DNA of 64,000 bases from an uncultured virus (IMG/VR IMGVR_UViG_3300031830_000001). Taxonomy: Duplodnaviria; Heunggongvirae; Uroviricota; Caudoviricetes. The DNA is taken from the IMG/VR virus record IMGVR_UViG_3300031830_000001. One strand, written 5' to 3'. Below are positions 8,760 to 57,620 of the stretch, one piece after another. Within the stretch, counting starts at the first letter, position 1. Each line of letters opens with the position of its first letter. The notes under the pieces are model-generated. The model made no database searches, was not told the DNA's origin, and saw nothing but the letters and a program-made list of their open reading frames with translations. The translations under genes were made by a program, and so were the position numbers.

Positions 8760-11700
8760 CTAAATAATTGTGTAGCTTTGAGAAGCAGCAGTAGATGAAT
8801 TTACATATTTGATTAAATCTTCCCAAAGATAGTTTTTTACGACATTGGCTAGTATTCTTCCATCAACAACAAGATTAATATTTGAATTAAGACTCAATTT
8901 TAGAGATGTAGATACTTGAGGAATTTGAGTTGTTGCTGTTTGTGAAGGTAATAACAACTCCTCAGACTTCCTCTTAGCCGTTGGAATATCGGGAGGATTA
9001 AATGAATTAGGATTAAATAATCCCTTAAAAAAGTTACTTAAATCGGTTGGTATTTGTTTTATAGCATCAATTAACCCAGATAAATCAATATTAAAAGGTT
9101 GTTTTGATAATTCTAAGAGAAGCTCCTGCTGCGCTTGCAATGATTGAACAATTCCTCTATTAACTTCTTGCTCTTGTTCTGTATAACGCTGTTTGTATGC
9201 TTCTATAGCGCTACTATATTGTTGTGTTAAATAATGTTCATATTGAGCCTCATATCTTAGTGCGCTTGCTTTATTTCCTCTTTCCTCTCTTTCACGTGCT
9301 GCATACATCTCATACTGAGCTGGGTAGTTTCTTAAAGTAGTTGCAGCATATTCCGCGGCTGTTGCTAAATTATTTAGCTGATTCCCAGTATTCTGAGCTG
9401 CGCTATCCACGGGTCCAAAATCAGGAGGAACGATATTTTGAGAGCTAGCTTCATTTAATCCTTTTTGATAGGCGAACTGGAGAGATTGGAAAGGTACCCA
9501 GGCAGTAGCTTCAGAAGGTAAATTATAAATACCATCTAGCTGTTTCTTTTCAGTGTCTAAAATTTGAGAAAGTAGATGCTGGACAATTTTCCAATCCATT
9601 TTATAATTAAGCGGGTTACTAGTATCCTTAAAGAATGTAATTAATTCTTGAACATCTACCTTCCCGCCTCTTGATTCTATTGCTTTTACAATTCGATTAT
9701 ATTCTGGAATAATACTTTGAAACTGGGCAAGGGTAACATTTAGAAATTGATAGCCTAATCCCCCAAAAGCTCCTCCTTTTTGTAATTCATTGTAAACTTT
9801 ACTCAACAAATCGGGAAAAATAATTCCCTGAGCAATTTGATAGCCCAGTTTTTCCCCAAGTTCAAGAATTAGCTTTTCACTCTTTGCCTGTGTTTCTAAC
9901 AACCCCGCATCAGCCCCAGTGATAATTCCATTTTGAATTGCAAATGCTAACAACTCCTCTTGCTTCTTCATAACTTCAGCAAGAAAAGCATTTAATTGCT
10001 CCTGATTTGTAATATCTTCAAAGGTATAGGTTTGAGGGAATAATCCCTTAATTGCAGCAGCTTGATTCTTTTGTGTTTGCTGTTCAGTTAATTTTAGCAA
10101 GGCAAGTAGTTGTTCAATCTGACCATTAAGAATTTCAACAGCCTGTGCCGTTGTAATATTGGTATCTCCATATTCTATCATTCCACCTTTGCTCGCCTGG
10201 ATAGCTGCTGATAAATCAATAATATCTGTAATCAAAGATACTAGTGCCTGTGAACTTTCCGCACTAGCTTGTAATAAAATATCAGCAAAGCTTTCGGCAG
10301 TAGGCAAAGTTTTCAATAATTCCTTATTAATCCCCTGAATTCCCTCAATTGTCTTTACAGCGTCAAATCTTGCCATGGCAGAAGGAGTACCAGCTATACT
10401 TCTTCCGAGTTCCCTATATTGAGTAGGAGTTATCAACCCTCGATAATACTGCTCCTTAATATACTCCTGTTGCTGCTTCATAACGTCTGAAATAATCTTT
10501 TTATTTGTCTCCCCGTATCGCTCAATAAATTGATTAATTGGCGTCCTTCTAATATCTTCCTGGGTTAGCTCTCTAGGAATTTCTTTCCTTGATTCTTCCA
10601 GTGCTTCTAAGTACGCTTCTGCTACCTGCTGTAATTCTGGTGTTATAAATCTTGCATATCGCCCAACACCTAAAAATTTTCTCCCCTCTTTTACGGCATT
10701 TACTATCGCCCTTGCATAAAGCTCCATTACATTTCTTTCAGTAATTTCCGCACCAGGTTGTATAGATAATCCGTAAAAATCTCTCCCAAAAGTTTGGGCT
10801 GCTCTAGCCTGTAAAACTAAAGTTGTTTTTGAAATCCATCCGCCTAATAATTTCGGAATAAATTCATCTAATTTTTTAGCTAATTCTTCTTCTTTTGTTA
10901 ATCTTGGCTCCTCTACTCTACCCTCTTCTACAGCTCCTTTAATAATTGACCTGAAATAATCTGTAACCTCTCCCTTTTCAGTTATCAAAGAATCAACGAA
11001 TGCTCCTCCTATTGTAGCGCCTGCAAACATCCAAATAGGATTACCAGTTAGACCTCCAACAATTCCTCCGACAATCGAACCCGCTACAGACAGCCAGCGT
11101 CTTTCGTCTCCCTCTATTGCCTTGGAAATAAAAGGAAGCGCTGCTACACCTCCTAATACTGCACCCCCTCCAACTCTACCGATAATTTTAGAAGTTGTGG
11201 TGGGGTCTAATCCAAATAACGAACTTATTCCCGCTGTTAATCCTGGAGCTTTGATAGCTGCCAAACCTTCAAGATTCTCCATAAATTCAGCTAATCTAGC
11301 CTGTCTTGTGGGTCCTCTTGATAGAAACAGGAGAAGACTGGTAAGAGTAAGAGGAATTGTTAATGAACCTAAAATTTTTGTCAATTCGGAAAAAGTATCA
11401 ACCAGCCCAGTTCCGACATCTAGTAGAGCCTTAGTATAATCAAGTAACCCGCCTTCCATTCCCAGAGTATTAGCTAACTTTTGAAAAGCGTTACCTAGAT
11501 AAGTAACTTTTGTTTGAACAGTATCTAAAGATTTTGCTAGCGCGTTCTGGGCTGCTCCCGCTGAATCTGCCTGCTCTTCAGTTAACTGAGCAACTCTAGG
11601 TAAATCAGCTAGGAATAGCTGGAATCTTTGAGCATTTCTCACACCATCGCCCAAAGTGTATGCTAATTTAGCAAAATCTTTTTCAGAAATTAATCCCGTT

Positions 11701-14700
11701 TTATATGCAGTATAAATATCATAAGAAATGTCGAGAAAATCTCGCATTTCACCTGAGGCTGATTTAACAGCGATGCCATACCTAGATAACGCTTGAATAG
11801 CTCTATCTGTATAGAGGTTGCCCACTAAAGCTCTAACAATATTACCTAGCTCCTTACCTGCCACTTGTCCTGTCTTTTCTGCTACAACAGCGATAACCGC
11901 ATTTAATTGTTCAAGGCTCATGCCCGCATTTTCAGCGGATTCTTGAACAACGGAAAATGCCGTAGCTAACGAGGCTAAGTCAATATTAGCCTTTCTGGTA
12001 ATTGTTACCCACATATCCAATAAAGTAGCGCCTCGTGAAAATGCTTCCCCCGTTGTTTCACCAGCTTTTTGAACCTGTCTCAAAGAACCCGATAAAACAT
12101 CAATAGCCTCAGCAGTAGATAGTGTAGATAATTTTGATAATGTAAGCGCATTAACAAGTAATTCATTAGCTGCTACAGTTCTTTCATAAGCATCACGAAT
12201 ATCTCCAACAGCTCGATATGCAGCCGTATAGGCTTCAATAACTCCGTTTACATTTTCTCCTGTTTCCTTAGCAATATCCGAAGCTGCTTTAAAAATTTCC
12301 GTTAATTTTATCTGCTCATTTCCTAGAATAATGGATACTTGAACTAATTTAGCCTCATTATCAATTGCTAGCTGAATTATTTCACTAATTTTTCGATACC
12401 CACCATAAATTAGTGTGGCACCAATCGACCATTTAAAAACTTCTACGATATTTCTTCGAATCGCTTCTGTAAATTCGAGAATTCTTCTATTTGTATAGGT
12501 TACCGCCTCTCCGAATCTATTTAGGGCAATAGTCATTTGATTGACTGAGCCTGTATCCTTATCTATTTGCTTAGCTGTAAAAAATGTAATGTCAGCGGGC
12601 ATTTGCCGGCGAATATCCAATTTATCATAAGAGCTAAATCCCGCCTGCGCAAACATTTCAGTAACCTTATTAGTAAGTTCTGAAATCCTTTCCCTAGCCT
12701 TTAGAGGAGGGGTAATTTCCAAGTATCTTGCGATTGTTGCTCGTAAATCAGGTCGAAATGTACCCGAAAGCGTATTTCCTACAACACTTATAGTCTGCCC
12801 CGCGGCTCGGACATTAACTTCTAAATTTTTAAATTCATCATTAAGTTGTACTATTGATACAGTTTTAATATCTTTTAAAGATAAACTAAATTTTCTTAAT
12901 TTATCTACTACGACGTCAAGAAGTCCTGGTACCTCTTTTAGACGTTTTATTTCCTCTTCTCGTAGCCATTCCTCAAAAGTTTTCCGACCTGGAAGTCTTA
13001 TATTACCCAGCCTGTCTAAAGTTACGACAAGATTAGAAACAACCCCCGCTGAATTTTCTGCCTCAACTCTAAGTTCTAAAAGGTCGGTTTTAATATTTTG
13101 AACTGAACTTAGCTTACTGATACCTGTAACTCCTAATCCCTTAAATGTTTCAACCAGTTGATTGACAATTTCAGTCGTTTTTTCGGGTGAAAAACCAAAA
13201 ATTGAACTTTGAACAGCTTTCTCTAATTCCTGTCTTAAATCTCGTTGAAAAACACCCTTAGCAGTATTACCTAAAATTTGAATAGATTTTTCACCCGCTT
13301 GGATAGTAACAATTAATGACTTTAAACTATCATTTAATTGCTCTACTTCGACATGAGTTATATCTTTTAATCCTAAATTAAAATCCTTTAATTTAGCAGT
13401 TACATGGTCTAAAAGACCTGGAATCTCTTTTAACTTGTCTAAAGGACTTGCTAAAGGAGTAACCTCCTCCATTTGTTGAGCTGACTCTTTAAATTTAAAA
13501 GCAAACTTATATCTAGATTTTTCCCCCTTTACACCAGCTAGTACAGAAATTCGAGCCTCTCCTGTAGGAGAAACGGACATTAATGGAGAAAAATATTCGA
13601 TAACCTTATTCTCAATATCGACCCCGATGCTCTTCAAATGTTTTTCGATAGCATCGATAATAGTTTGAGCATACTTTTCTCCTACTGCACGTATTATTTC
13701 CCTTCTTTGATATTCAATTTCACCTCGTAATTGACTAATATCAGGCTCTGTTGGTTTAAAAACTTCAGCAGGTGGGGGAGTTAATTTTAGTAAAGCACTC
13801 TCAATTTTTCTAATATCTACAAATTGAGGTATGACAGCTTTTTGTCCTGTAGTAAGTGTTTTTTCTACGTCTATTTCTAATTTTCGAGTACGTACTCCAA
13901 ACTTAGGAGTAATATTTTTAATATTTTCTATATCCCCAGCGACTTTAACCACTTCTTCAAGGACAGCATCAATTGCTTCGCTTTTAATTTTCCCCAAACT
14001 AATCAGAAAGTTTCTTAAATCTTCTAATGATTTAAATGCAATCGTTTCGACTTTTTTCGTTTTTTCCGCAATATCAGTTTTTATCTCAGCAGCGGGCAGG
14101 GTGCTTTTTGGAGTGGAAGGAGTTAAATATTTCGATAAGGCTTCTCTACTTCTTAGTATCTCCTCATTGACTCTTTCCACCTCTCCAGTGGCTGTATTAA
14201 TAATATACTGGACAATCTGTTCTGAAAGATTAGTTGCGAGCTTATCAGGCTTTACTTTTACCTCTAAAAATTTATAAATATCCTGAAATTTATCCTTAAT
14301 ACCTAATGAGGCTGCAACACTCTTTAGTGGTCTAGGTCTGCCCAACAGCTCTACACCACTAACCTTACCTAAATCGCCAAGTAAAGTTCCTACATCAGCA
14401 AGTATTGAAGTAACAACTTCATCTCGAATCCTGGATAAAAGTCCCGTTAATTTACCTTTTAAAATAGTGTCTATAACTCCAACACTCTTGACTGCCCCAG
14501 GGGTGAGTTTAGTTTTAGACCTAATTAAACTTTCTATTACAGATTGAGGAGCTTCGAGAATAGTTATAAGTTCTTCAGAAACATATTGATTTAGCTCTTC
14601 AATTTTCTTAGAAATAGAGGGGATAGTTCTAGAAAAAACACTTTTCAACCCTCTTTGTGTCTCAATAGGTTTATATCTAGCACCTAGACTAATTCCCTCT

Positions 14701-21624: not shown

Positions 21625-22530
21625 CTAGGTAAGTCCAGCAATAACGTAAATACCCTGAGCGTTCCAGACAAGGAGACCAAACTGCTGATAAAGTTCAAGA
21701 TACCATTGAGGAGGAGTCGGTTTGGGGTCAGTATATTGCTTAGTCATGACATCCCCATAAAGTATAAATTCACCAACATTTTCCCCAATGACAACGACTT
21801 TATTCTCAGGAATGAGGGGAGTATAATCTTCTAAGTTATCATAAACCTGGTCGATAACAAAAAGTTTCGCCCCATAAAATTCACCTAAGAATCCCTCCCG
21901 CATAAGCTGGTCAATTCTGCTGGGGCTATAACCACTATCAGTATCACTGCGCCAGAAAGCACTATCAGCAGAAATTGGAGTTAGCGCTTTTCTAGAGCCT
22001 ACAACTGCTCTAACACCTGGCGTTGTTTGATTAATCCTATCAATAGCGTTCTTTAAAGCAGTTGCGTTAAGAGGTCCTCCAACGCTGGTATAGTTATTAG
22101 GAGTATTTGCAGCAGACCACACAGTAGAAAGGGCGGTAAAAATTTTCCGATAGTAGTAATCACGCAGTGCTGCAACCATCTCATTACGGATTTCTTCAAT
22201 TGTCCCCAGCTCCCCAGATTCAAGTTCCCATTCATTATACGTAACTTTGACATTTGCACCGTCTAAGACATAGTTGATTCTATCAGAGACGGTAATTTCA
22301 CTCGCTAGATGAACAGAACCTGGAACCAGTGTACGCACCTCGATTCCCTTACGAATCTTTTTAACTAGGGCATCTCCTGGTTTTAGAGTTCTAGTATTAA
22401 ACAGCATTGAAATAAAGTCGGTTGTAATGTGGTTGGGATTAACGTATTCCACAATTAATTCGGCAACCGCCTGCTTATCACCCGACTTCAGGAGTTCAGC
22501 TACTGCTTCGCGAATTTTCTCTTTTTCCAT
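21625..22530 (-). CDS. Major capsid protein (HK97 fold likely)
   Basis: 301 aa; LTATALKNAI-type helix, GFLGEFYGAKL, IPENKVVVI; position after scaffold; terminator downstream. Confidence 0.8.
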   Translation of the reverse strand: MEKEKIREAVAELLKSGDKQAVAELIVEYVNPNHITTDFISMLFNTRTLKPGDALVKKIRKGIEVRTLVPGSVHLASEITVSDRINYVLDGANVKVTYNEWELESGELGTIEEIRNEMVAALRDYYYRKIFTALSTVWSAANTPNNYTSVGGPLNATALKNAIDRINQTTPGVRAVVGSRKALTPISADSAFWRSDTDSGYSPSRIDQLMREGFLGEFYGAKLFVIDQVYDNLEDYTPLIPENKVVVIGENVGEFILYGDVMTKQYTDPKPTPPQWYLELYQQFGLLVWNAQGIYVIAGLT

Positions 22531-24404: not shown

Positions 24405-25754
24405 TCAATCAACTTCCTGTTGCATTTTTCTTTTTTCCTCATCATAATCAAGTCCAAAAACTCTTCCTAGACTCTCAAGCGATATTCCGCCTTCCTTTCT
24501 TAGCTCAAATAGACCTCTAACAAAATCGCTAAAACTATAAAAATCAATACTTCCGAATTTCACTTTTGGAATCGTCGTTAGGTTATTCAAAATACCAATT
24601 TGATTAACGATATATTTAGCAATGGGTAGTAAATCTTTTTGCATTGTCTCCATTGTTTTTATCGGAGACTTTGTAGCTAACTCATGATTAGACGCCTGAG
24701 TTCGTAAAGTTTCACCTGTGGTCAAAATTCTAGGAAACCCAAGGGCAAAGAAAATGTCATTATTAACCTCTTCATATTTAGACGAGCTTAATAAAACATC
24801 AATTTGAGGTATTACCCACGAGATTTCCACCGTATGATTTGTGAATAATTGAACAATTCTTTCGATATTAGAATCACCAGCGTTTTTATAACGCAATTGA
24901 TTCCGAATATTTGAAAAAATCTCATCCTCCTCTCCTTCAAGAAGTGGGTATGTATCATTACCTACTTTAATATGCTGAATAGCTGCAATAACTCTAGCAG
25001 CTAAAGCATAATCCATTCTGCGCATATTTCTCTTATGCTTTAGAGAATCCAGCGCTGGGTAGAGATAAGGAATTGGATAAGGCGAATCTGGTAAATAACG
25101 CCCTCTTACAATTAATTCATTGTTTAACAGAATTTCTCTTTTACCGTTGAGAACATCCCTAACAAAATCTGGAAAGTTTTTCTCCAGCCACTGGTACCTC
25201 TCTTTATCAATTGTCCCATCAGGATAAGTCCCCTTTGAGCGGATAAACATGATTAAATCATCAGGAATCATCAAAGAATAAGATGGTTTATCATTACTGA
25301 TAAAAGATGAATTAATCTTGATATGCTCTGAATTTCTAATCCACATTGAAACTGGAAAATAAAGTCGCATATATTTCTTAATACCAAAACTTCTAATTGC
25401 GACTCTATCTACAGGCTCAAAAGTTATCTCAGGGACAACTAAACCCGTAATTAAATATTCCAGTCCACACAGTCGTAAAAATTTATTAATCTCACCCAGA
25501 TAAGCCTCATAAATTTTGCGGTCATTTTGAGGTAGGGAAGATAAATCTAATTCTAAATCTGTTATTCCAATTTCAACCAATTTATTAATAACTGTGCTGG
25601 CAATAGGGTCGCTGCGATAAAAAAAGCGACATTCCTGCACAACCTTTTGATAATCTTCTAATCTAGATGACTCCAGTCTATCGACATCTAAATTTTTCCA
25701 CACAACCGGCGCTTCTAAAATTGCAGAAGTAGCTTTTTTAGTAATTGTTGACAT
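24405..25754 (-). CDS. Portal protein
   Basis: Follows terminase; CRFFYRSDPIASTVINKLVE and IFFALGFPRILTTGE motifs. Confidence 0.8.
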   Translation of the reverse strand: MSTITKKATSAILEAPVVWKNLDVDRLESSRLEDYQKVVQECRFFYRSDPIASTVINKLVEIGITDLELDLSSLPQNDRKIYEAYLGEINKFLRLCGLEYLITGLVVPEITFEPVDRVAIRSFGIKKYMRLYFPVSMWIRNSEHIKINSSFISNDKPSYSLMIPDDLIMFIRSKGTYPDGTIDKERYQWLEKNFPDFVRDVLNGKREILLNNELIVRGRYLPDSPYPIPYLYPALDSLKHKRNMRRMDYALAARVIAAIQHIKVGNDTYPLLEGEEDEIFSNIRNQLRYKNAGDSNIERIVQLFTNHTVEISWVIPQIDVLLSSSKYEEVNNDIFFALGFPRILTTGETLRTQASNHELATKSPIKTMETMQKDLLPIAKYIVNQIGILNNLTTIPKVKFGSIDFYSFSDFVRGLFELRKEGGISLESLGRVFGLDYDEEKRKMQQEVD

Positions 25755-27324
25755 AATTTATACTCCAAACATTTAATCTTGGCTGCCCTAATTTAATAAC
25801 TTTACCCTTCCGAAAGCTTTTAAATTCATTTTTCACATAATAAGCAAGGCAAAAACAAAGAAGAGCTGATGTAAAGTGGTCATCTCCTCGTTTGCCACCT
25901 CGTTCTGTTAAAGTTCTAAAAACCACCTCTCCTGCAGGAGTTTTTGTATAAGTCATTCTTTCAAGCTCAGCAACTGTTTCTAAATCTGTAGATGAATAAA
26001 TTATTTTATGCTGATTAGAATAATCCTGTAAGATATTCACAGCTAGGGGTTTAGTTCGCATACTAATTGGCGAACCGTCTGCATTTATCCCCAAATCTGT
26101 ATTACCTGAAAAATTAACTGGATAAAGAATGTTATCATACTTTTTATGCGAATACTCTGGACTATTAATTAAATTAGGAATTACTGCTCTACCTGCATTT
26201 CCCTCATCTATCGCTACTAGAATGGGACTAAACTTTTCAAATAAGAAGTCCAAAATACGCTCTTGTAAATAATAATTGACCCTAGTTAATTGAATTTTAG
26301 CGTGGAATCTTATCCTACCATAATTATCAGCATACAAAATAAAAATCGCAGTAGGTTCAGTAACTCCTAAATCAACCCCCATAAAAACTGGATATTTTCT
26401 GTCTGGTATGGAGGGGAGGATAGATAACTTGTTAATATACTCTACAATATTATCAGAAATAGCCGACCCATCAAACGCTAACTTATATACTGGATATTCC
26501 TCAATAGCCATCAACTCACGGTCAAACAGAGCAAAAATAGGTCTCCCAGGTAGACCTAAGACGTTATGAATATAATCATCAGAGTCCTCCCCACCATAAG
26601 TTTCGATTGCTTTTTGCTTATCTATCTCAGTAAACCTGGGATTGTCAAAAGCTGATACATGATGTTTTGAATAATCTTTGTTTTCATTTTGACAATGCCA
26701 GTTTACATTCTTCTCGCGAATACCATTAGGTACGCCTGAAACAATCAGTCGATTTCCTTTTGTAAATGTTTTAATTACTGGCTGTAATTCAAGAAATGTT
26801 TTATAAGGATAAAAAGCCGATTCATCTAAAATAACAAATGGTGTGTGCAACCCCACAACATTAGCACCTGTCCCCGATGTGCCTGCAATGCGGCAAATAA
26901 GAGATGACCCTAATTTAGTCGTAATTGTAAATGTCGAACCATTCACCCCCTTATTAGGGTCGAGAAAATGCTGTAAAAATGAATTACCTCGCAGAAGTTT
27001 TACCAAATAATTTACCCAAACGGGTTCTAGATGAACCCTATTAGGTACGGTATAGACAATATAATCATCTGGGAATACATTAAAGATTAAACACCATAAA
27101 ATTAAACCAGAAAGAGCTGCTGTTTTTCCTACAGAACGAGCGCAGGAAATACTAACATTATGGTTGAAATCCAGCATAAACTCTTTTTGATACACTGTTA
27201 ATTCAAATTCTTCATCCCCCTCTAATTTATCATAATTCATTATAAACTCGAAGAAAAGAACTGGATTTCTCAGAATCTCATATAAAACTAGGTCTTCTTG
27301 AGTTACTCTTTCAACAACTGCCAA
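25738..27324 (-). CDS. terL: Terminase large subunit
   Basis: ARSVGKT Walker A, VILDE Walker B, VSGVP coupling motif, MGVDLG and DDH nuclease residues. Confidence 0.9.
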   Translation of the reverse strand: MAVVERVTQEDLVLYEILRNPVLFFEFIMNYDKLEGDEEFELTVYQKEFMLDFNHNVSISCARSVGKTAALSGLILWCLIFNVFPDDYIVYTVPNRVHLEPVWVNYLVKLLRGNSFLQHFLDPNKGVNGSTFTITTKLGSSLICRIAGTSGTGANVVGLHTPFVILDESAFYPYKTFLELQPVIKTFTKGNRLIVSGVPNGIREKNVNWHCQNENKDYSKHHVSAFDNPRFTEIDKQKAIETYGGEDSDDYIHNVLGLPGRPIFALFDRELMAIEEYPVYKLAFDGSAISDNIVEYINKLSILPSIPDRKYPVFMGVDLGVTEPTAIFILYADNYGRIRFHAKIQLTRVNYYLQERILDFLFEKFSPILVAIDEGNAGRAVIPNLINSPEYSHKKYDNILYPVNFSGNTDLGINADGSPISMRTKPLAVNILQDYSNQHKIIYSSTDLETVAELERMTYTKTPAGEVVFRTLTERGGKRGDDHFTSALLCFCLAYYVKNEFKSFRKGKVIKLGQPRLNVWSINYVNNY

Positions 27325-28139
27325 AGCTCGTTGTAAAACCTCCGCATAATATTAGCCCATGAAAATTGAGCTAATTTTTCTTTATTTACAGCTATTTTTT
27401 CCTTATTCTTTAGAATATTATAAATATTTTCCTCTAAATTGGGTGATTCTATATCGATTCTAATAGCTAGTTCATCATACCAATCATAAGAGGGAAGTGT
27501 AGGTACGACCCCTGTAGCACCGCAAGCAATGCCTTCAAGAACAGCTACCTCAAATCCCTCAATCGCTCTCAAACCAAACACATAGCTAACCTGATTAAGT
27601 AAGTTCCGAAAATCAACTTCTGACATATATTCTAGATATAAATACGATTCACCAAACTTAAAATCCTCCCCAGTGTGGATAAACGGATATTTAGCCTTTT
27701 TGCAGGCTCGATAAATTTTATCCAAATGCTCAGTTTCTGCTACATGACCAGTAGCAAAGACTAGATTAGCTCTACTATAGTCGTTGAAATTATAATAAAT
27801 ATTAGGGTCATAGCCGAAAGGTAAGTACAAAAAATTAAATTTTTTATCAGTCTCTTTGGGTAAATCGTAAAAAGAAACGGTCAACAAAGACTTTTCCCAT
27901 AAAGTATCCCAGGCATAATTACCCGCTGTTTTATAGCATTCCTGAAATAAAACAAGATTTTTAGCCTGTAAAGCAACCTCAACTTCACCCAAACCAATGA
28001 TGTGAACAATTTGAATATCGGAATCCTCCATTCTATCTACCCATTCAACCCAAATTGGCGCGTAATCTCTAAATGCTTTTCTAATCTTTTTAAAAACAAT
28101 TCCCCAATCAGGGTGTTGATATTCATAAATCCTTACCAT
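27303..28139 (-). CDS. Glycosyltransferase, GT-B (GT4-like)
   Basis: PFGYDP and EGFEVAVLEGIACGA motifs. Confidence 0.8.
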   Translation of the reverse strand: MVRIYEYQHPDWGIVFKKIRKAFRDYAPIWVEWVDRMEDSDIQIVHIIGLGEVEVALQAKNLVLFQECYKTAGNYAWDTLWEKSLLTVSFYDLPKETDKKFNFLYLPFGYDPNIYYNFNDYSRANLVFATGHVAETEHLDKIYRACKKAKYPFIHTGEDFKFGESYLYLEYMSEVDFRNLLNQVSYVFGLRAIEGFEVAVLEGIACGATGVVPTLPSYDWYDELAIRIDIESPNLEENIYNILKNKEKIAVNKEKLAQFSWANIMRRFYNELWQLLKE

Positions 28140-28948
28140 ACTTCCTCCTTAAAACTAACATTGGAAAATCCCCAGGCTTCGTTATTCATAGTTGGTTGAT
28201 TAAAATTCAAAACAAATCTATCAGCGTCATTTGCTATTCCCGAACCGCCAAATCCTCCCTCGTGCCGAATATGAAACACGGGGCAGTTAAAAATAGGCAC
28301 TAATTTATATCCCAAATTAGCAGCTTTACGCTGAACATTTGAATCTGAAAAACCCCGATAAACCATCTGCTCCTCAAAACCTCGAATATCAAACCATATT
28401 TTTCTAGAGGCTAGTTGAAAATCACCACAACAATCAATAATAGACCAGACATCTTGTTTATTAATCCCAGAATACCCATGACAAAAATATCCATCATAAT
28501 TTGAAAATAGATACTCTTGGGAATTATTTATTTGGCGAAGTTCCTCCAAACTAATATCCCTTCTAGCTATAATATAAAAACAATTTTCATCTGGTTGAAA
28601 GGTCAACTTTAAAGGCGCAACAATATCAATGTTAGACGAAATAATAAAATCCCCCTTGGCACGCCTAATTCCAATATTCCTAGCCAAAACCTCAACCACT
28701 GCCTGAGAATCTAAAGGTAGTCCCAAATTGAAAACAAATTCATTTGTTACTTGAATATGGCGAATACGCCCAGTTTTTTCAATGTAATCCTTAATTTCAG
28801 TAAACAACGAGATGTTATTTGGAGAATTCCAATCAACATAGATTACCTCATCGCATAGTTTAACAAAGCTGTTTAAACAATAAACAGCTCTTTCATTTAG
28901 ATTTCCTCCGTAATTATCATTTCTAGCAATTATCACACTACTTAACAT
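28133..28948 (-). CDS. Glycosyltransferase, GT-A (GT2-like)
   Basis: RNDNYGG, VDWNS, ARNIGIRRAKGDFII, NID, CGDF, RGFEE. Confidence 0.75.
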   Translation of the reverse strand: MLSSVIIARNDNYGGNLNERAVYCLNSFVKLCDEVIYVDWNSPNNISLFTEIKDYIEKTGRIRHIQVTNEFVFNLGLPLDSQAVVEVLARNIGIRRAKGDFIISSNIDIVAPLKLTFQPDENCFYIIARRDISLEELRQINNSQEYLFSNYDGYFCHGYSGINKQDVWSIIDCCGDFQLASRKIWFDIRGFEEQMVYRGFSDSNVQRKAANLGYKLVPIFNCPVFHIRHEGGFGGSGIANDADRFVLNFNQPTMNNEAWGFSNVSFKEEVW

Positions 28949-28993
28949 AGTTACTTTTCCAAATTTTTATTGAACTAATAAACTCCTTATAAC

Positions 28994-30076
28994 TTAAAAT
29001 AAGCTCATCCAGTACTGGTATGCATTCCTCGCCCTATTAGGCATATAAGCAAATAAAGAATCTGCATCCTCTCCTTGACAAATTGATTTTATAACCTTTT
29101 TATTATACGCATAACCTAGTAGTTCATTCTCAAAATTAGCTACAAGACTCTGTGGATTCCTTTCTTGAAAAACTGTCGCCTCAGTCAACACTATTTGGGG
29201 CTTTGCTTTAGCAATTACGTAATAACTTGCCCAAATATCATCCATCCTTCCTACATGCGGAACTATAAAATAATACGGGACTATATTTCGATGAATAACA
29301 GTATTTTGAGAATTAAAAGGTGTTATATGATTTTTATCAAGTAATAAATAAGTATCGAATTTTGATTCAAAAAGATACTGACTATTTTGTGTACACGCTC
29401 TTAATACGGCATCAAAATCTGGTATTCCATTCCACAATCCTATAACAATATCGGGGCTAAAATCAGCAAGTAAGTCATATTTAATATCAAATTCCTCTAG
29501 TAAACCATCAAAGTACAACTCAAAAGGAAATCCCCTAACCCACATTGAGTCGTGTACCATATCCGATAAAAGATAATTATACTTTTTTGCATAGTAATTA
29601 AGAATATTCACAAGAACGGGTTTTTCAGGTTTAGGTCTTAAAACATTAAAATTACTCCCAGTAAATTTTCGTAAAAACATAAAGTCATACCAATCATGGT
29701 AGGGAATATTATCATCATCAACTAAGGCTATCCATTCAGCGCCCTCCTGATAGGCGTATAAAACACCTAAATTTCTTCTCTGGATGCAATTCCACCCGAT
29801 TAGCTCAGAAAGTTCAACATCAATATCTTGCTGAAATTCAGGCGAGAGATAAACTATATTTTTGAAATTTTTTTCAAGTTCATAATAATCTTCATGAGGT
29901 GTTTTTAAATCACCAACTATAATAAATAAACAGTTATGTTGTTCGGCAATTTCACAAAATCGTAAAATTGCTCTGGAGGGCTTATAAATAGTTGTAGTTA
30001 CTATAGCAGTTTTAATTGAAAAATTTTTCAACTTTGACTCAAGAATAACGTCAAAAAGATTTGTAGTAGTAATCAT
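28994..30076 (-). CDS. STELLO/RGP (GT75-related) protein: glycosyltransferase or NDP-sugar mutase
   Basis: VTTTI, VGDLKTP, RRNLG..YA, VDDDN, RGFP, GLWNGIPDFDA, PFNSQNT, GRMDDIW. Confidence 0.75.
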   Translation of the reverse strand: MITTTNLFDVILESKLKNFSIKTAIVTTTIYKPSRAILRFCEIAEQHNCLFIIVGDLKTPHEDYYELEKNFKNIVYLSPEFQQDIDVELSELIGWNCIQRRNLGVLYAYQEGAEWIALVDDDNIPYHDWYDFMFLRKFTGSNFNVLRPKPEKPVLVNILNYYAKKYNYLLSDMVHDSMWVRGFPFELYFDGLLEEFDIKYDLLADFSPDIVIGLWNGIPDFDAVLRACTQNSQYLFESKFDTYLLLDKNHITPFNSQNTVIHRNIVPYYFIVPHVGRMDDIWASYYVIAKAKPQIVLTEATVFQERNPQSLVANFENELLGYAYNKKVIKSICQGEDADSLFAYMPNRARNAYQYWMSLF

Positions 30077-31047
30077 GCTAACTCCTTTCTAACCTGCTCC
30101 TCAATCCAAAAATATGTCCGCTTCAATCCCTCTTCCAAAGAAATCCTAGGAGACCAACCTAAAAGTCTTTTGATTAGTCTGTTATCGGAAGTTCTAGCCT
30201 TAACACCGACAGGTGCATTATTTAGTACATATTTTACTCGAATATTTTTTCTAGCTATGCTGCTAATCATAGAAATTAACTGATTAATCGAAACCATCTC
30301 CTCAGAGCCAATATTTACCGTCTCTTTATAAGGAGAGTTTACCAAAGCTAGCACGGCGTCTAGACAATCTTCTACGTGAAGATATGACCTGGTTTGCGTT
30401 CCATCTCCCCAGACCTCAACTTCTCCTTTATTCTTAGCTTGGGCAATTTTTCTACACAATGCTGCGATTGACTTTTCCCGACCTCCTTTCCAAGTCCCCT
30501 TCTCCCCATAAATATTGTGGAATCTAGCAACTCTTATGTCTAAATTATAATTTCTTCTATAAGAGTCATACACTATTTCACTAAACAATTTTTCCCAACC
30601 ATAAACGCTATCAGGGTTTGCTGGAAAGGCTGAATCCTCACTGATTATGATATTATCGGGGTAAAGTTGATTATGGGATGGATAAACACAAGCTGAAGAA
30701 CTGAAAAATAAAACTCCAATATTGGATTGAGAAGCCACCCGCGCCACGTTCAAATTAATCATTGCCGAATTTGTTACCAAGTCAGCATCATGTCTCCCAG
30801 TAAAAACAAAACCAGCTCCCCCCATATCAGCAGCTAATTGAAATACAAAATCAAATGAACCCTCAAAAGACTCTTTAACAACATTTATATCCCGTAAATC
30901 TCCCAAAATAAAATGGTCGGTATATACAGGCTGCCATTCATTTTGTTTTCTATCAACACCTCTAACCCAAAATCCTTCTTCTTTCAATCTATTCACCAAA
31001 TGTCCTCCAATAAACCCTCCAGCGCCTAAAACTAAAGCTCTTCTCAT
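30073..31047 (-). CDS. NAD-dependent epimerase, GDP-mannose 3,5-epimerase-like
   Basis: GAGGFIG, LAADMGGAGF, SSSACVYP, YGWEK (YxxxK), RFHNIYG..GTWKGGREK. Confidence 0.9.
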   Translation of the reverse strand: MRRALVLGAGGFIGGHLVNRLKEEGFWVRGVDRKQNEWQPVYTDHFILGDLRDINVVKESFEGSFDFVFQLAADMGGAGFVFTGRHDADLVTNSAMINLNVARVASQSNIGVLFFSSSACVYPSHNQLYPDNIIISEDSAFPANPDSVYGWEKLFSEIVYDSYRRNYNLDIRVARFHNIYGEKGTWKGGREKSIAALCRKIAQAKNKGEVEVWGDGTQTRSYLHVEDCLDAVLALVNSPYKETVNIGSEEMVSINQLISMISSIARKNIRVKYVLNNAPVGVKARTSDNRLIKRLLGWSPRISLEEGLKRTYFWIEEQVRKELA

Positions 31048-31086
31048 ATCTACCTCCTCAATAAACTATTTATTTCGTTCAAATGC

Positions 31087-31329
31087 TTAAACATCTTCTG
31101 TAAAAATTTCAGCGGGCATTGTAGAAAAAAGTCGCTTTATCAATGAATGAAATGTCATTCCTCGACCAGAACTTGCAGTTATTGAATAAATATACTCATC
31201 ACCCGCTGGAGATTTACAACTTACAGAATAAACATTACCTTCTTTACTCATTATAAAATTATATCCCTTTTTTCTTAGAAGTTTGAATTTTTTATCTTCG
31301 TCCATAAAAAGCTCCTTTCTAGTTTTCAT
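31087..31329 (-). CDS. Hypothetical protein
   Basis: ORF in operon. Confidence 0.5.
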   Translation of the reverse strand: MKTRKELFMDEDKKFKLLRKKGYNFIMSKEGNVYSVSCKSPAGDEYIYSITASSGRGMTFHSLIKRLFSTMPAEIFTEDV

Positions 31330-32314
31330 TTACTTCTCCATCAGTCATTAAACAATGAGGACTAAACCAAATTCGCTCTTTAAACCTGTTTTCAGCGTTT
31401 TTATTCTCTCGCTTACTATTACCGTAAGAACGCCACCCTATCCAACTTATTTTATACCATCCCAATTCTTCTAAAATATTATGCTCGCCTTCATAACCAC
31501 AAAGTGCAATTCTAAGGTGGGAATTATTAGAATTTTCAATGCACCAGTTTCTTACTTCTGCAGCTAAATTATCATCATCAACTGTGTAAATATTTTCTGA
31601 ACGAACTTCTTTTGAATACGGGGGGTCAAAAAATATACCTACAGTTTTAAATTCAGATAAAACTACTCCAGTAATAACACTTTTCCAATCTTCACAACAA
31701 ACCTTTACATGACGTAGTCTGTTTGATAGCTGAGTAAGATAAGCTAAAACATCAAAATCTTTACCTCTAATGATTCCGCTACTAGGTGCTGGTAGGTTAG
31801 GTCTTTTTCTACAAACACCCTCTAATCCAGCGTCTTTACCTAAAACCTTTTTCCAGTTAACCAATTTACCATCAATTTCAGTCCAGGGGGCATTTCCCTT
31901 ACACCAATCACTCCCAGCGCCCAGCCAGATAGATACCCCCCATACCCACCAGCCTGCCACCTTGGGGTCATAAAAATCAAGGTCAGTGGGAACTCTAGAT
32001 GCTAATTCAGGTTTAGCATATTTAACTAGCCAAATATGTCTAGCTGTTAAATCTGCTTCATTGACGGGATTATCTATATGCTTTGCGACCTCATCTGGCG
32101 CATTTTTAACAGCCCGCCAAAAATTAGCAACAAAATAATCTTTATCATTAATAATCTCAATTTTAGGAATCGAGGGTCTTAAAAACAAAACCGCGCCAGC
32201 ACCAAAAAATGGTTCTATATAACAATCTACATCACCAAAAAACCGCCAAACAGTGTCAGCGATACTCCTCTTATTACCAAACCAAGGAAATGGGGCAATA
32301 TATCTTTTATCCAT
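31319..32314 (-). CDS. DNA adenine methyltransferase (D12/Dam-like class)
   Basis: PFPWFGNK, YIEPFFGAG, FFDPPY. Confidence 0.9.
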   Translation of the reverse strand: MDKRYIAPFPWFGNKRSIADTVWRFFGDVDCYIEPFFGAGAVLFLRPSIPKIEIINDKDYFVANFWRAVKNAPDEVAKHIDNPVNEADLTARHIWLVKYAKPELASRVPTDLDFYDPKVAGWWVWGVSIWLGAGSDWCKGNAPWTEIDGKLVNWKKVLGKDAGLEGVCRKRPNLPAPSSGIIRGKDFDVLAYLTQLSNRLRHVKVCCEDWKSVITGVVLSEFKTVGIFFDPPYSKEVRSENIYTVDDDNLAAEVRNWCIENSNNSHLRIALCGYEGEHNILEELGWYKISWIGWRSYGNSKRENKNAENRFKERIWFSPHCLMTDGEVNEN

Positions 32315-32318
32315 TATC

Positions 32319-32771
32319 CTAATACTCCTTGGGTTTAATCAAAATAATCTCCTTACTGGGTAAATATCCTAAATATTTGATAGCTAGGTTCTTTACATCT
32401 TCCCAATTCAAACCTCCTAAACCACATCCTACAGCAGGCAATGCAATATATCTAGATTCCTCTATATAACTTAGCATATCAAACCCTTTCTCTATCCACT
32501 CAAGTTTTGATTTATCTCTCCAGTGGTCTTTTGTAGCAAATAAAATCCAAGCAGGTCGAATATCACCATAGAAACAGACCCTTACCACATCACCTGGTGA
32601 AAACGAACCGCGATTGCAAATCTCTTTATATGCAGTAAAAAGAATCTTATGGCGAGACATAATGTCTTTAGCCAATCCAGCACCCGCAACGCCAACACAG
32701 TTTACAGGTACAACAATTTCAAAATGTGAAGGTGTATCAAAAATATTGAAATAATTAGCTATCCTCAGCAC
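32319..32771 (-). CDS. Macrodomain protein, DarG/TARG1-like
   Basis: VNCVGVAGAGLA, FATKDHW..KS, IALPAVGCGLGGLNW. Confidence 0.85.
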   Translation of the reverse strand: MLRIANYFNIFDTPSHFEIVVPVNCVGVAGAGLAKDIMSRHKILFTAYKEICNRGSFSPGDVVRVCFYGDIRPAWILFATKDHWRDKSKLEWIEKGFDMLSYIEESRYIALPAVGCGLGGLNWEDVKNLAIKYLGYLPSKEIILIKPKEY

Positions 32772-33917: not shown

Positions 33918-33991
33918 TGCCCCAGGCAGGATTCGAACCTGCATGACTAACGGTTTAGAAGACCGCTGTTCGTCCATTGAACTACTGGGGC
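33918..33991 (-). tRNA. tRNA-Arg (anticodon UCU), CCA not encoded
   Basis: Cloverleaf: acceptor GCCCCAG/CTGGGGC, D stem GTTC/GAAC, anticodon stem GCGGT/ACCGT with loop CTTCTAA, T arm GCAGG-TTCGAAT-CCTGC. Confidence 0.9.
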
Positions 33992-43071: not shown

Positions 43072-43266
43072 ATGGAGTGGAGGCTTCAAGACAATATAAT
43101 TGAGGAAGATTATCATTACGATAATTTTGATTTCTATTCTATAGCAACGGATGAAGAAAAAGAAAGCTGGTGGGCGTGCGTCTTAGGTGATAAACCTGAG
43201 ATTGACTATGAGGTGAGTTATGAAGATTGGCTAAATCTAATTTTACAGGAGGTTAATTATGCGTAA
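43072..43266 (+). CDS. Small very acidic hypothetical protein
   Basis: AAGGAG RBS; D/E/aromatic-rich. Confidence 0.55.
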   Translation: MEWRLQDNIIEEDYHYDNFDFYSIATDEEKESWWACVLGDKPEIDYEVSYEDWLNLILQEVNYA

Positions 43267-43564
43267 ACTAATTGTAACTAGACACAAAGGAGCTGTTGAT
43301 TGGATTCACAAACATTATCCCAATACATTAGATTGGGAGGTAAAGGCGGAAGTTTCTGAAGTCGATGTTAATGGCGCAATTGTAATCGGGGTATTGCCCC
43401 CTCCTTTAGCATCTCTAACGGTTAAATATTTTGCAATTGAATTTAAGTCAGGGAAATCTCCTAGAGGACAGGAGTGGACTTTAGAGGATATGGAAAATGC
43501 CGGGGCAACCCTTCAGCAATACGAGATAAGGAAGGGTGATGAGGATGTATCATTCCTATCCTGA
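43259..43564 (+). CDS. csx16: Csx16-like (Cas_VVA1548 family) protein, candidate ring nuclease
   Basis: TRHxGAxxW, VIGxLPxxLA, YF, RGxE, GAxLxxYxI match the Csx16 pattern as I recall it; AGGAGG RBS. Confidence 0.75.
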   Translation: MRKLIVTRHKGAVDWIHKHYPNTLDWEVKAEVSEVDVNGAIVIGVLPPPLASLTVKYFAIEFKSGKSPRGQEWTLEDMENAGATLQQYEIRKGDEDVSFLS

Positions 43565-44411
43565 AGTTTTCAGCCTGTATCATAAACAAGTTAGAGATAT
43601 TTTTTCTACGCCTGTCGTTGTTGAAGAAAAAATTGACGGCAGTCAATTTTCTTTTTACAAAGACAGGAATACTGGTACTGTTCATTGCTTCTCAAAGAAT
43701 GTTGAGATTAATTTGGAGTATCCTCAAAGCCTTTTTAAACTTGCCGTTGATTTTGTTTTATCTATTCAGGCGTTATTAGCTCCTGGGTATATTTACAGAG
43801 GTGAATGTATAAGCAGGGAAAAACACAATGTTATTAAATACTCTAGAACGCCTAAAACTTTTATTGTTGGTTTTGACATTGATAAAGGGTATGAGGATTA
43901 TCTTCCTCCTGAAGAGAAGCTGGAAGAATTTAATCGATTAGGTATTGAAGTTGTGCCAGTCCTCTACAGTGGAGTTGTATCTAACGTAGAAGAATTAGAA
44001 AGGTTATTAGATAGAGAATCTTTTTTAGGAGGTTCGCTTGTTGAGGGGGTTGTAATTAAAAACTATAACCTTTTTGGCGCTGATAAGAAAATTTTAGTAG
44101 CTAAGATTGTATCAGATAAATTTAAAGAAGTGGCTAAGCAGGTTTGGTCTCAATCTAATATAGTAAAAGAGCTGGGTACAGCTTTGAGGACTGAGGCTAG
44201 GTGGCAGAAGGCTGTAATCCACTTGAAAGAGCGAGGATTATTAGAAGATAGTCCGAGGGATATTCCTAGGATTATTGATGAGGTTTTAGCAGATGTTAGA
44301 AAGGAAGAGTATGAAAATATTTGCGAGGCTTTATTCAATCATTACTGGAAAGATATTTCCCGTGAAATTATCAAAGGAATCCCAGAGTGGTACAAAAATC
44401 AGTTGGGATGA
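43536..44411 (+). CDS. RNA ligase (Rnl2-like nucleotidyltransferase)
   Basis: EEKIDGS (KxDG), YRGE, GFDI, EGVVIK, AKIV...FKE. Confidence 0.85.
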   Translation: MMRMYHSYPEVFSLYHKQVRDIFSTPVVVEEKIDGSQFSFYKDRNTGTVHCFSKNVEINLEYPQSLFKLAVDFVLSIQALLAPGYIYRGECISREKHNVIKYSRTPKTFIVGFDIDKGYEDYLPPEEKLEEFNRLGIEVVPVLYSGVVSNVEELERLLDRESFLGGSLVEGVVIKNYNLFGADKKILVAKIVSDKFKEVAKQVWSQSNIVKELGTALRTEARWQKAVIHLKERGLLEDSPRDIPRIIDEVLADVRKEEYENICEALFNHYWKDISREIIKGIPEWYKNQLG

Positions 44412-56139: not shown

Positions 56140-56188
56140 TTTTTATTCTCCTTTCTTGTTTTTTATCTTCTGCCCCGTGAATCGGGGC

Positions 56189-56300
56189 GAAAAATTTTTA
56201 GCCCGCGCCTAATGCCATTTTTAAGTTGCCCAGGGGGGGGGGGGGGGAGGTGGCGCCCCCGAAGCTTGGGCGGCATTTTGGCGCGCTGGATTTTTTTTCT
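56189..56300. repeat. Copy of the early-region repeat element containing a G15 tract
   Basis: GCCATTTTTAAG at 56214, G15 at 56233-56247, AAGCTTGG, TTTTGGC, GGATTTTTT. Confidence 0.75.
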
Positions 56301-56366
56301 TACCCGCCCCTTGTCCGGTGAGGGGTGGACACTGAACGCTGAGCAGTGTCCACCGGGGCGGTGTTG

Positions 56367-56407
56367 GTAAACAAAAATGCCGGGGCTACGTCGTAAGTAG
56401 CCCCGGC
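56367..56407 (-). terminator. Intrinsic terminator after 56455-56868
   Basis: gccggggctac/gtagccccggc stem followed by TTTTTGTTT on minus strand. Confidence 0.8.
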
Positions 56408-56454
56408 TCCGGTGCCGGCTAGTTAGCCGGCGAGGAAATGGGGGAGAGTGGGCG

Positions 56455-56868
56455 CTACTCAGCTATAAAGTAGCGTCCATCTCTGTTGTGATAGATTTCG
56501 CATCCCTGCCATACGCTGGCAGGGATGTTGTCTAGGCTAATATCGATATGCTCGATATTAGCAATTGGATTGCCTTGCTCATCGGCTCCAAAGCCGACGA
56601 TACGGCGGGCATCGACAAAAACTTCAGGATTGTCCGGCGTCGCCGGGCGTCTCCCGCTCAGTTCAACAACGATGTCTCCCTCTCTGAGACCAACCAGTGC
56701 CTGCCCGCTATTGCACCGGTGCCCGTGCCGGGCAATGAAGCACGCCCGGGCTAGCTCCCCCGCCCGCATCACGAAGCGGGCGGAGAATTTCGAGGTAGTG
56801 GCGCCCCCGCCCACCCAGAGGGCGGGGTTGCCACGGGAGGTTTTTGTAACTTCTAATTTTGCGTCCAT
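56455..56868 (-). CDS. Hypothetical early protein, paralog B
   Basis: LWVGGGATTSKFSARFV..., ends DGRYFIAE; GGAAGGT RBS. Confidence 0.8.
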   Translation of the reverse strand: MDAKLEVTKTSRGNPALWVGGGATTSKFSARFVMRAGELARACFIARHGHRCNSGQALVGLREGDIVVELSGRRPATPDNPEVFVDARRIVGFGADEQGNPIANIEHIDISLDNIPASVWQGCEIYHNRDGRYFIAE

Positions 56869-56883
56869 TTTTGCACCTTCCTT

Positions 56884-57306
56884 TCAACTGATTTTCAGTA
56901 GTTCGACGTACGGGTTTGCCACCCACACGTGAGCAACAGCCCAAGGAAAAAACATCCTCCTCACCCCTTCGGGGGAGGCTAAGAAAACCTCTCCCACCCC
57001 CCTAAACAGGGGGAGAACGGCGTGGACGGGCATCGGGGCATATACTGTTTTAATATCGATGTTTAAATTAACGAAATATGAAGAAACAATACATGCGTGC
57101 TTCCCGTTGTCGAAGACGAAATACCCCTCCAGTTCTTCTAGAAGTGGGCTTTTATCACGGACTGCCCACTTCGGGTTTCGCCCGTTCCGCCCCCAGGTGT
57201 CAACCTGGGGGCCGAATGGGACTCGGACGGACAGGTACGTGCTACTCGACAGAGAGAGTAGCGCACTTGATACTCTTTTTAGTGTTCGTTTATCGAAAGT
57301 ATTCAT
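56884..57306 (-). CDS. Hypothetical protein
   Basis: GGAGGT RBS; tightly packed. Confidence 0.55.
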   Translation of the reverse strand: MNTFDKRTLKRVSSALLSLSSSTYLSVRVPFGPQVDTWGRNGRNPKWAVRDKSPLLEELEGYFVFDNGKHACIVSSYFVNLNIDIKTVYAPMPVHAVLPLFRGVGEVFLASPEGVRRMFFPWAVAHVWVANPYVELLKIS

Positions 57307-57308
57307 TG

Positions 57309-57620
57309 TTACACCTCCATTTTAATAATTAATGCCGGAGGCACGCTCCGGGTAAATGCGGGGAAGGTATCGTAATCCTCCCCCTCCACCAGGGGAGCTA
57401 GCATCAAAGCTAGCTCCTCATCCGAAATGATTTCCCCGTAATGCCACCAGTTACCGGACATGTCGCGGATGAAGAAGTCCGCGACGCCGGTTACGGAGAC
57501 GTCTTTAATTTCGACGTCTCCATGGGCTTCACAGTGGCACGGGGCGTTGAGAACGGGTGGCACGTCTAAATCGTGCCACTTCCACTCGCAACCGCAAGAC
57601 ATTGTAATCCTGATTTCCAT
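57309..57620 (-). CDS. Hypothetical protein with Cys/His cluster
   Basis: CGC...CxxH; AAAGGAG RBS. Confidence 0.6.
   Translation of the reverse strand: MEIRITMSCGCEWKWHDLDVPPVLNAPCHCEAHGDVEIKDVSVTGVADFFIRDMSGNWWHYGEIISDEELALMLAPLVEGEDYDTFPAFTRSVPPALIIKMEV

Follow-up and report, generated by a model that had tools for sequence, protein, structure and literature searches.

Sugar-nucleotide and glycosyltransferase genes upstream of the terminase gene of an uncultured tailed phage: a candidate virion glycosylation system

The window analysed here is the whole 64,000-nucleotide stretch of IMG/VR record IMGVR_UViG_3300031830_000001, from an uncultured tailed phage (Caudoviricetes) of about 65 kb, in which four contiguous minus-strand sugar genes span positions 27303-31047, directly upstream of the gene for the large terminase (TerL). 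From upstream to downstream, these genes are predicted to encode a GDP-mannose 3,5-epimerase (GME; P0004), a homologue of the nucleoside diphosphate (NDP)-sugar mutase MtdL (P0001), a glycosyltransferase (GT) of the GT-A fold (P0002) and a short transferase of the GT-B fold (P0003), with overlaps of 4 and 7 nt or a 45-nt gap between neighbours (Table 1). An earlier note on this DNA had placed four consecutive genes here and had guessed their families as GME, GT75-like, GT2-like and GT4-like; the open reading frame (ORF) coordinates are as claimed, and all four guesses are supported by PDB, profile and fold matches. The portal gene lies downstream of the cassette, beyond TerL, according to the PHROG scan.

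Table 1. Positions of the sugar genes and of neighbouring features in the window
Feature	Length	Positions	Strand	Basis of assignment
GDP-mannose 3,5-epimerase orthologue (P0004)	324 aa	30073-31047	-	PF01370, PDB phmmer
MtdL/GT75-like NDP-sugar pyranose-furanose mutase homologue (P0001)	360 aa	28994-30076	-	PDB phmmer, family profile
GT-A fold, GT2-like glycosyltransferase (P0002)	271 aa	28133-28948	-	AlphaFold2 + Foldseek, PF00535 of relatives
Short GT-B fold, GT4-like glycosyltransferase (P0003)	278 aa	27303-28139	-	AlphaFold2 + Foldseek
Fifth enzyme, full-length GT4 within the head-tail block	387 aa	19402-20565	-	PF00534, phrog_2170
Large terminase (TerL)		25738-27324	-	phrog_2 E 3.5e-24; Terminase_6C E 2.3e-4
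Major head protein, candidate acceptor		21625-22530	-	phrog_16565 1.7e-16; phrog_2522/phrog_29
ORF between Dam-like methylase and epimerase (g80)	80 aa	31087-31329	-	no family match

The assignment of P0004 as a GDP-mannose 3,5-epimerase, although predicted from sequence comparison, is solid. It is the sole protein of the cassette with a direct Pfam match (PF01370, E 7.7e-44), and phmmer searches of the PDB aligned it with Arabidopsis GME over residues 6-323 (2c59, E 2e-87) and with entry 8sg0 (E 1e-83), while the best chain of any other short-chain dehydrogenase/reductase (SDR) reached only E 3e-30. An NAD-binding GxxGxxG motif is present at residue 8 (GAGGFIG), and residues C120, Y149, K153 and K192 align with C145, Y174, K178 and K217 of the Arabidopsis enzyme, of which we take C145/K217 to be the acid-base pair and Y174/K178 to be catalytic as well.

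The second protein, P0001, has no match in Pfam (E <= 0.01, with the RGP model included), PHROGs or NCBIfam. Its relationship with MtdL (7xpr and related entries) is found by phmmer in the PDB at E 1.1e-13, and a profile made from a family of 36 members (A3) reaches MtdL at E 2e-33, covering MtdL residues 9-318. According to passages of PMC9937993, MtdL is a GT75 enzyme which converts GDP-L-galactopyranose to GDP-L-galactofuranose in the biosynthesis of A201A, with an autoglycosylated Arg159, and its relative Hyg20 performs the equivalent reaction on GDP-L-fucose. In the alignment of the 36 members, the DDD motif (D120-D122) and R181 of P0001, which correspond to D109-111 and R159 of MtdL, are invariant (36/36), and the same holds for D220, S256/Q257, R277, D280 and R306, the counterparts of MtdL D195, S228/Q229, R257, D260 and R289. 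From the residues that give MtdL its GDP specificity (T13, N42 and S86), P0001 keeps the first, as T28, and has K58 and C97 at the other two positions, unlike both MtdL and the plant UDP-type enzymes; a GDP-sugar substrate is proposed for P0001 because its gene neighbours are GME or GDP-mannose 4,6-dehydratase (GMD). The mutase-like family comprises 4,729 matches, and none of the 120 homologues listed carries a Pfam domain. In view of the replaced metal-site residues described below, P0001 is called MtdL-like here rather than a member of GT75; its assignment as a mutase is good but qualified, the activity being predicted from homology.

For the two transferases of the cassette, P0002 and P0003, direct Pfam, PHROG and NCBIfam scans returned nothing usable, PDB searches with profiles of their families brought up no relative, and tblastn found none among 50,697 GenBank phage records; the nearest Atlas cluster is virus-only for each of them. 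P0002 has 625 homologues, and PF00535 is matched by 22 of the 42 aligned members (best 3.1e-7), while P0002 itself has no Pfam match. Its AlphaFold2 model, with a predicted local distance difference test score (pLDDT) of 91.8, was matched by Foldseek to K4CP (1.1e-10, the top match), to SpsA (1.2e-7) and, with a probability of 1.00, to the polypeptide GalNAc-transferases (ppGalNAc-Ts), with TMq values of 0.5-0.59. Residues D39, N106-x-D108, D176 and H226/H229, which have presumed functional roles, vary little or not at all across the family, and the model gives a solid prediction of a GT-A fold with a Rossmann-like nucleotide-binding half. In some relatives (P0016-P0018, P0022, P0024, P0027; L040 5995-7356), the GT-A domain is fused to a C-terminal O-methyltransferase (PF13578/PF01596) in proteins of about 455-470 aa, which suggests methylated sugars in those variants of the cassette.

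For P0003, only 14 homologues were found, together with a weak match to phrog_2170 (E 1.1e-3). Its AlphaFold2 model (pLDDT 94.5) was matched by Foldseek, at about 1e-10 and with TMq values of 0.66-0.74, to 7qsg, a GDP-mannose-dependent mannosyltransferase, and to BshA, PimA and MshA, with entries 7qsg, 3mbo, 2gej and 3c4q lying at about 1e-10 to 1e-9; the best matches are thus GT4 enzymes that transfer mannose or GlcNAc. The protein is short, with 278 aa against the 300-400 aa of these matches, and it carries E194-x7-E202, presumably the E-x7-E motif of GT4, in which E194 is invariant and E202 nearly so. The modelled structure is solidly that of a two-Rossmann GT-B enzyme, GT4-like.

A fifth sugar enzyme, the full-length GT4 of Table 1, lies among the head-tail genes, at a distance of approximately 1 kb on the downstream side of the gene for the major head protein. 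That head protein ends in Gly-Leu-Thr (AGLT), and a strong terminator-like hairpin (21617-21591; 11 pairs, 7 GC) comes after its gene. The fifth enzyme matches PF00534 with 44.8 bits (cut-off 26.4) and phrog_2170 at E 1.3e-38, a copy 98% identical is present in relative G002, and long RNA-library contigs cover its gene together with tail genes. Its closest cultured homologue, with 37% identity, is gp14 of Synechococcus phage S-CBS4, which sits between the portal and head protease genes, beside a second transferase and a methyltransferase. Hydrophobic segments are absent from all five sugar enzymes, the maximum Kyte-Doolittle mean over 19 aa being 1.45.

The overlap of the cassette with the start of the terminase gene, as the earlier note had it, depends on the start codon of TerL, given that a TTG start at 27324 overlaps the P0003 gene by 22 nt, whereas with ATG 27240, the first in frame, the two genes are 62 nt apart. 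A terminator-like site was looked for in the interval between the cassette and TerL and none was seen, and a promoter scan returned 58 sites against 64.3 in shuffled sequences, an absence of excess for which no promoter is named. Contigs from four RNA libraries bridge the boundaries between P0003 and TerL (crossed by one contig), P0002 and P0003, the mutase-like gene and the epimerase gene, and the epimerase gene and g80, although a contig that spans two genes is no proof of a single transcript and DNA carry-over is possible, and contig depth, which is one figure per contig and strongly uneven along the region, cannot rank the genes. The shared strand, the interval free of terminator-like sites and the contig across the P0003/TerL boundary support only in part the claim that the cassette is wired into the late operon.

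Five close relatives (L001-L004 and L014) carry intact copies of all four cassette genes, which, judged by estimated dN/dS values of 0.06-0.18 against L002, are under purifying selection. A value of 0.60 obtained for P0003 against L001 was dropped as an indel artefact of the ungapped comparison. The 80-aa ORF upstream of the epimerase gene is 89-100% identical in L001-L003.

The same combination of genes recurs in other viral genomes. Among 224 confirmed viral loci with the GT-A family, the best 80 were kept and four close relatives were set aside, which left 76 distant loci, and 40 of these have a mutase-like gene. An SDR of GME grade is found in 26 of the 76, and the mutase-like gene occurs in each of these 26 too, in many cases with the three genes side by side. 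When the mutase-like gene is taken as the starting point, in 17 distant viral loci, an adjacent GME is present in 5/17 (44-54% identity), and a true GMD (PF16363, E ~1e-100) with a second SDR in 3/17, a pair which we take to be the GDP-L-fucose route that feeds Hyg20; other SDRs occur in 3/17, and no SDR lies within 3.5 kb in 6/17. Only one of these 17 loci has a clear member of the GT-A family (L011), and the mutase-like gene therefore pairs with varied transferases. For the mutase-like gene in cellular genomes, 280 loci were confirmed and 80 kept; GME is adjacent in 12/80 of these, and the GT-A family is present in only 2/80. The grouping of epimerase, mutase-like protein and GT-A transferase, widespread in viruses and without annotation, is the main novelty of the locus.

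The position of the cassette is also repeated. The terminase type of the window occurs in five distant loci (L040, L041, L061, L094 and L106), with a sugar cassette directly upstream in 5/5, and a homologue of P0003 immediately precedes TerL in L040, L041 and L061. The content of the cassettes varies, however, and those of L040 and L061 hold a GT-A/O-methyltransferase fusion, another SDR and the P0003 homologue, with no epimerase and no mutase. As to gene order in relatives, which the earlier note had proposed to check, those with this terminase have a sugar cassette of variable make-up in this position. In two phages with different terminase and capsid families (G005 and G006), GMD, an SDR and the mutase-like gene lie upstream of TerL, and one or two phrog_2170 transferases come right after the capsid gene, while in Tetrasphaera phage TJE1 a sugar cluster is found upstream of the terminase genes. 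The link with morphogenesis genes that had been suggested from the window finds support in the fifth transferase within the head-tail block, in the five loci of the same terminase type and in the similar arrangement in the two phages with another terminase. The terminases of the more distant relatives L040 (9234-12005) and L061 (9037-11769) are 910-923 aa long and contain an intein that bears a homing endonuclease of the LAGLIDADG type (matches to Hint, Intein_splicing and LAGLIDADG_3).

Two further neighbourhoods deserve description. Among the viral homologues of the mutase-like protein, those furthest removed, with 28-29% identity, are in L018 (7914-9125) and L021 (7995-9116), where the neighbours are an AAA_24 ATPase, dUTPase_2 and a 555-aa C5 cytosine DNA methylase, a setting that would suit a DNA-directed role for that branch. 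In the identical loci L045 and L076, a thymidylate-synthase-like ORF of 400 aa (10854-12056; PF00303, E 1.6e-91), which has an insertion, is placed 5 kb downstream of the GT-A and mutase-like pair.

The two ends of the window, positions 1 and 64000, are joined in two related contigs (L032 7047-8103 and L033 4221-6013) across 1.1-1.6 kb, and the genome therefore has a circular map of about 65 kb, of which the window represents approximately 98%; the gap accounts for the remaining part of one ORF, of 278 aa, and for another of 152 aa. The CheckV completeness of 44-46% for relatives of 40-44 kb, which implies a genome of about 96 kb, was rejected because these two relatives join the window ends. 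Pfam scans of the 75 window ORFs, with the two gap ORFs unscanned, found no thymidylate-synthase homologue, TET/JBP protein, C5 cytosine methylase or ParB, in agreement with the earlier note, which had seen no base hydroxymethylase or TET/JBP gene in the window. PF00303 and PF00145 are absent from the related records, all of which are fragments, and a PF12851 scan of these records carries no weight, its control having found no match. Family scans of the window ORFs found no integrase, repressor, flippase, polymerase or lipid-carrier enzyme.

From these elements, a pathway can be proposed in which the phage would convert the GDP-D-mannose of its host to a rare donor sugar, and three soluble transferases, drawing on this donor and probably also on nucleotide sugars of the host, would assemble a glycan on the proteins of the virion while it is being put together. 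The epimerase would act first on GDP-mannose, as suggested by its orthology and conserved catalytic residues, and the MtdL-like protein would then contract the ring to yield GDP-L-galactofuranose, a step for which homology, residue conservation and gene pairing argue. In the third step, the GT-A transferase, whose gene accompanies that of the mutase-like protein in many contigs of viruses, would transfer the L-sugar, and the short GT-B beside TerL and the GT4 behind the capsid gene may add or extend sugars, in roles and in an order that are conjectural. The acceptor, to judge from gene position, may be a capsid, tail or other virion protein.

The idea that the phage produces an unusual activated L-sugar, possibly a furanose, is well supported, and the pairing of GME with the MtdL-like protein points in particular to a predicted GDP-L-galactose followed by GDP-L-galactofuranose. 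The earlier note had proposed both this sugar and a glycan on the virion; the enzymes and the L-sugar or furanose donor find support here, while the placing of the acceptor on the virion stays conjectural. Virion glycosylation is nonetheless the best reading of the gene set, with a probability of roughly 0.4 and with the acceptor proposed from gene position. A narrower proposal, which is rather doubtful, is that of a viral module, widespread and unannotated, in which the epimerase would work together with an MtdL-like protein of the Gln variant and a GT-A enzyme restricted to viruses, to make GDP-L-galactofuranose and place L-galactofuranose on particles.

Known systems offer parallels for different parts of this pathway. 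In the A201A pathway of Marinactinospora thermotolerans, an epimerase, presumably a GDP-mannose 3,5-epimerase that precedes MtdL, is likewise followed by a Mn-dependent GT-A-like mutase that acts on a GDP-L-sugar, and both the DDD motif and the catalytic Arg of MtdL are retained in P0001, along with the majority of its sugar-binding residues. On the other hand, the phage set is viral rather than part of an antibiotic cluster, P0001 has Gln in place of His287 and His292, Ile in place of Asp87 and no Pfam match, and the phage product would feed transferases that act on a macromolecule, not on a nucleoside antibiotic. The substrate of MtdL is stated in passages of PMC9937993 to be GDP-L-Galp (structures 7xpr and 7yua).

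The glycosylation of virions by phage transferases is established in mycobacteriophages (Freeman et al. 2023, as cited in passages of PMC11256854). In the phages Che8, Corndog and Myrna, with O-glycosylated virions, soluble phage transferases act on capsid and tail proteins, as is proposed here, and their genes are likewise placed inside or beside the structural module. These phages differ from the present one in having no detectable sequence relation with its enzymes and in their host and habitat, and also in that this phage would make its own rare donor and that its glycan is predicted from genes alone. Among the cyanophages, S-SCSM1 has an annotated GME in a sugar island (ORF121-135), as described in passages of PMC9602691, while a mutase-like gene with 38-40% identity is present in the sugar island of S-T4 (gp104-119) and in Sf-CH5 and Sf-CH8, and S-CBS4 (gp14-16) carries the homologue of the fifth transferase in its head module. 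Unlike the genes considered here, those of the cyanomyoviruses are read as auxiliary genes for lipopolysaccharide (LPS) or the cell wall, beside hli genes, and their mutase-like gene is annotated as hypothetical. Searches of the literature on GT75 or GDP-L-galactose in phages gave no report of a phage GT75-type mutase and one cyanophage GME annotation.

A number of observations weigh against virion glycosylation as it is set out above. The three transferases have no detectable sequence relative among the mycobacteriophage GTs (tblastn against the same phage records). The upstream genes on the same strand (exonuclease, macro domain and Dam-like methylase) are of early type, and late timing of the cassette is therefore only a supposition. 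The mutase-like genes of S-T4 and Sf-CH8 belong to large sugar islands far from the structural genes, and 71 of the 76 distant GT-A loci have no terminase of the window type within 6 kb, a count to be read for that type only: other terminase types are not reliably detectable, Pfam missing even a known TerL homologue (L106:7175-8728). Finally, a His-to-Gln change at the metal site weakens the ring-contraction step. The Mn ligand H287 of MtdL is replaced by Q304 in P0001, invariantly in 36/36 members, and H292 and D87 are replaced by Q309 and I98, nearly invariant in the family; passages of PMC9937993 describe the coordination of Mn by His287, tie the inactivity of AtRGP5 to the absence of His287 and Arg257, and report the D87N and D87S mutants of MtdL as inactive. 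Given the Gln at the position of H287 and the Ile in place of the essential D87, mutase activity is not assured, and P0001 might instead be a self-glycosylating or transferring GT-A protein (the "reversibly glycosylated polypeptide" activity of GT75) or be inactive, with which its failure to match Pfam, even with the RGP model included, is also consistent. The donor would in that case be GDP-L-galactopyranose or GDP-L-gulose, a change that concerns the second step and is compatible with any acceptor. This possibility is improbable, however, in view of the invariance of the DDD motif, of R181 and R277 (the latter equivalent to Arg257) and of four other residues that bind the sugar, of the dN/dS of 0.18 for its gene, and of the recurrent pairing with GME, or with GMD and a second SDR, which mirrors two known bacterial mutase pathways.

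The rivals that concern the target of the glycan have to be weighed against the same loci. The main one is remodelling of the host surface, in which the enzymes would act on LPS, capsule, S-layer or cell-wall polymers of the host while these are built in the cytoplasm, and would so alter the surface of the infected cell, for instance as a barrier to superinfection or to keep progeny phages from adsorption to debris. This is how the cyanophage literature reads phage GME and transferase genes, as modifiers of the host cell wall or LPS (passages of PMC9602691), and the auxiliary sugar islands of S-T4 and Sf-CH8, with the mutase-like gene beside hli genes, would fit it, as would the wide distribution of the mutase-like family in cellular genomes (the 280 confirmed loci, and GME adjacent in 12 of the 80 kept). 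It is made unlikely by the virus-only clusters of both small transferase families and the rarity of the GT-A family beside cellular mutase-like genes, by enzymes free of membrane segments in a window where no lipid-carrier, flippase or polymerase gene was found, and by the transferase embedded among the head-tail genes, in a position that recurs in unrelated phages; the absence of any integrase or repressor among the window ORFs renders lysogenic conversion unlikely as well. The other rival is DNA glycosylation, in which the transferases would attach the sugar to a modified base in the phage DNA prior to its packaging, and which would explain the position of the cassette between a DNA methylase and the terminase. 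Passages of PMC13326640 describe phage DNA hypermodification with arabinofuranose (Araf) in RB69 and DLP3 and a UDP-galactofuranose (UDP-Galf) mutase in RL38J1, so that furanose sugars and phage NDP-sugar mutases are known in this role, and the hypermodification clusters (arabinosyl-5hoC in RB69/DLP3; 5mYOX-GT with 5-hydroxymethylcytosine, 5hmC) resemble the present one in combining nucleotide-sugar synthesis, including furanose donors, with transferases near DNA-metabolism or packaging genes. A Dam-like methylase is indeed found upstream, past the 80-aa ORF, an N6/N4 methylase lies between the cassette and TerL in G005 and G006, and the C5 cytosine methylase and dUTPase of L018 and L021 and the thymidylate-synthase-like gene of L045 and L076 are of the same tenor. 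Those clusters are defined, however, by a base-hydroxylating or hydroxymethylating enzyme, and none was found in the approximately 98% of this genome that was scanned, which makes DNA glycosylation very unlikely; the absence of PF00303 and PF00145 from the fragmentary related records and the place of the fifth transferase among the head-tail genes argue in the same direction.

Virion glycosylation cassettes and sugar-nucleotide genes are known kinds of phage genes, and the gene set described here is a variant of these. To our knowledge, the glycosylation of phage particles has been shown experimentally only in mycobacteriophages, in which it alters antibody recognition, and NDP-furanose mutases are sought as biocatalysts. 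If the narrower proposal, with L-galactofuranose on the particles, is true, this would be the first phage to synthesise a rare furanose donor for its own coat and the first L-Galf glycoconjugate outside an antibiotic pathway, while the approximately 4,700 unannotated homologues would form a new metal-site-variant branch of the GT75 NDP-pyranose mutases. A rare L-sugar donor of their own would mean that phages can decorate themselves independently of the sugar repertoire of the host, and the exchange of GDP-L-galactose-type for GDP-L-fucose-type cassettes in one genomic position would be a sign that the phage surface is under diversifying selection. The proposal also provides a testable function for the large MtdL-like family, including "hypothetical" genes of cultured Synechococcus phages.

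Several features of the window lie outside the pathway itself. The Dam-like methylase beside the cassette (31319-32314) looks like a presence/absence polymorphism, given that contigs of two RNA-library runs (X15 and X17) skip 853 nt at 31442-32296 and that relative L003 keeps just the last 43 residues of the protein; a second Dam-like paralogue is located at 59457-60458. The public runs that hold positions 24500-32500 are hot-spring or microbial-mat metagenomes in 20 of the 22 rows listed, from 17 studies, and include six RNA libraries; a marine habitat, at first taken from the cyanophage matches, was dropped on the basis of these run labels. The segment 53300-59000 is a hypervariable, compositionally foreign block, with a GC content of 0.41-0.51 against about 0.34 elsewhere and a run of small ORFs with no family match, and relatives are 83-84% identical to it at 56163-58292 against 94-98% in the flanks. 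A macro-domain protein (32319-32771), a tRNA-Arg(TCT) (33918-33991) and an RNA ligase (43536-44411) are present, which might together serve tRNA repair or counter ADP-ribosylation. Beside the RNA ligase gene, in the replication module, a plus-strand ORF of 101 aa (43259-43564) matches PF09652 (Cas_VVA1548, putative CRISPR-associated) at E 9.6e-15. In the lysis region, on the minus strand, a single protein of 657 aa (61662-63635) unites a trypsin-like protease with a GH25 muramidase and an SH3 domain, and an M23 peptidase with an SH3 domain is encoded separately (60519-61097).

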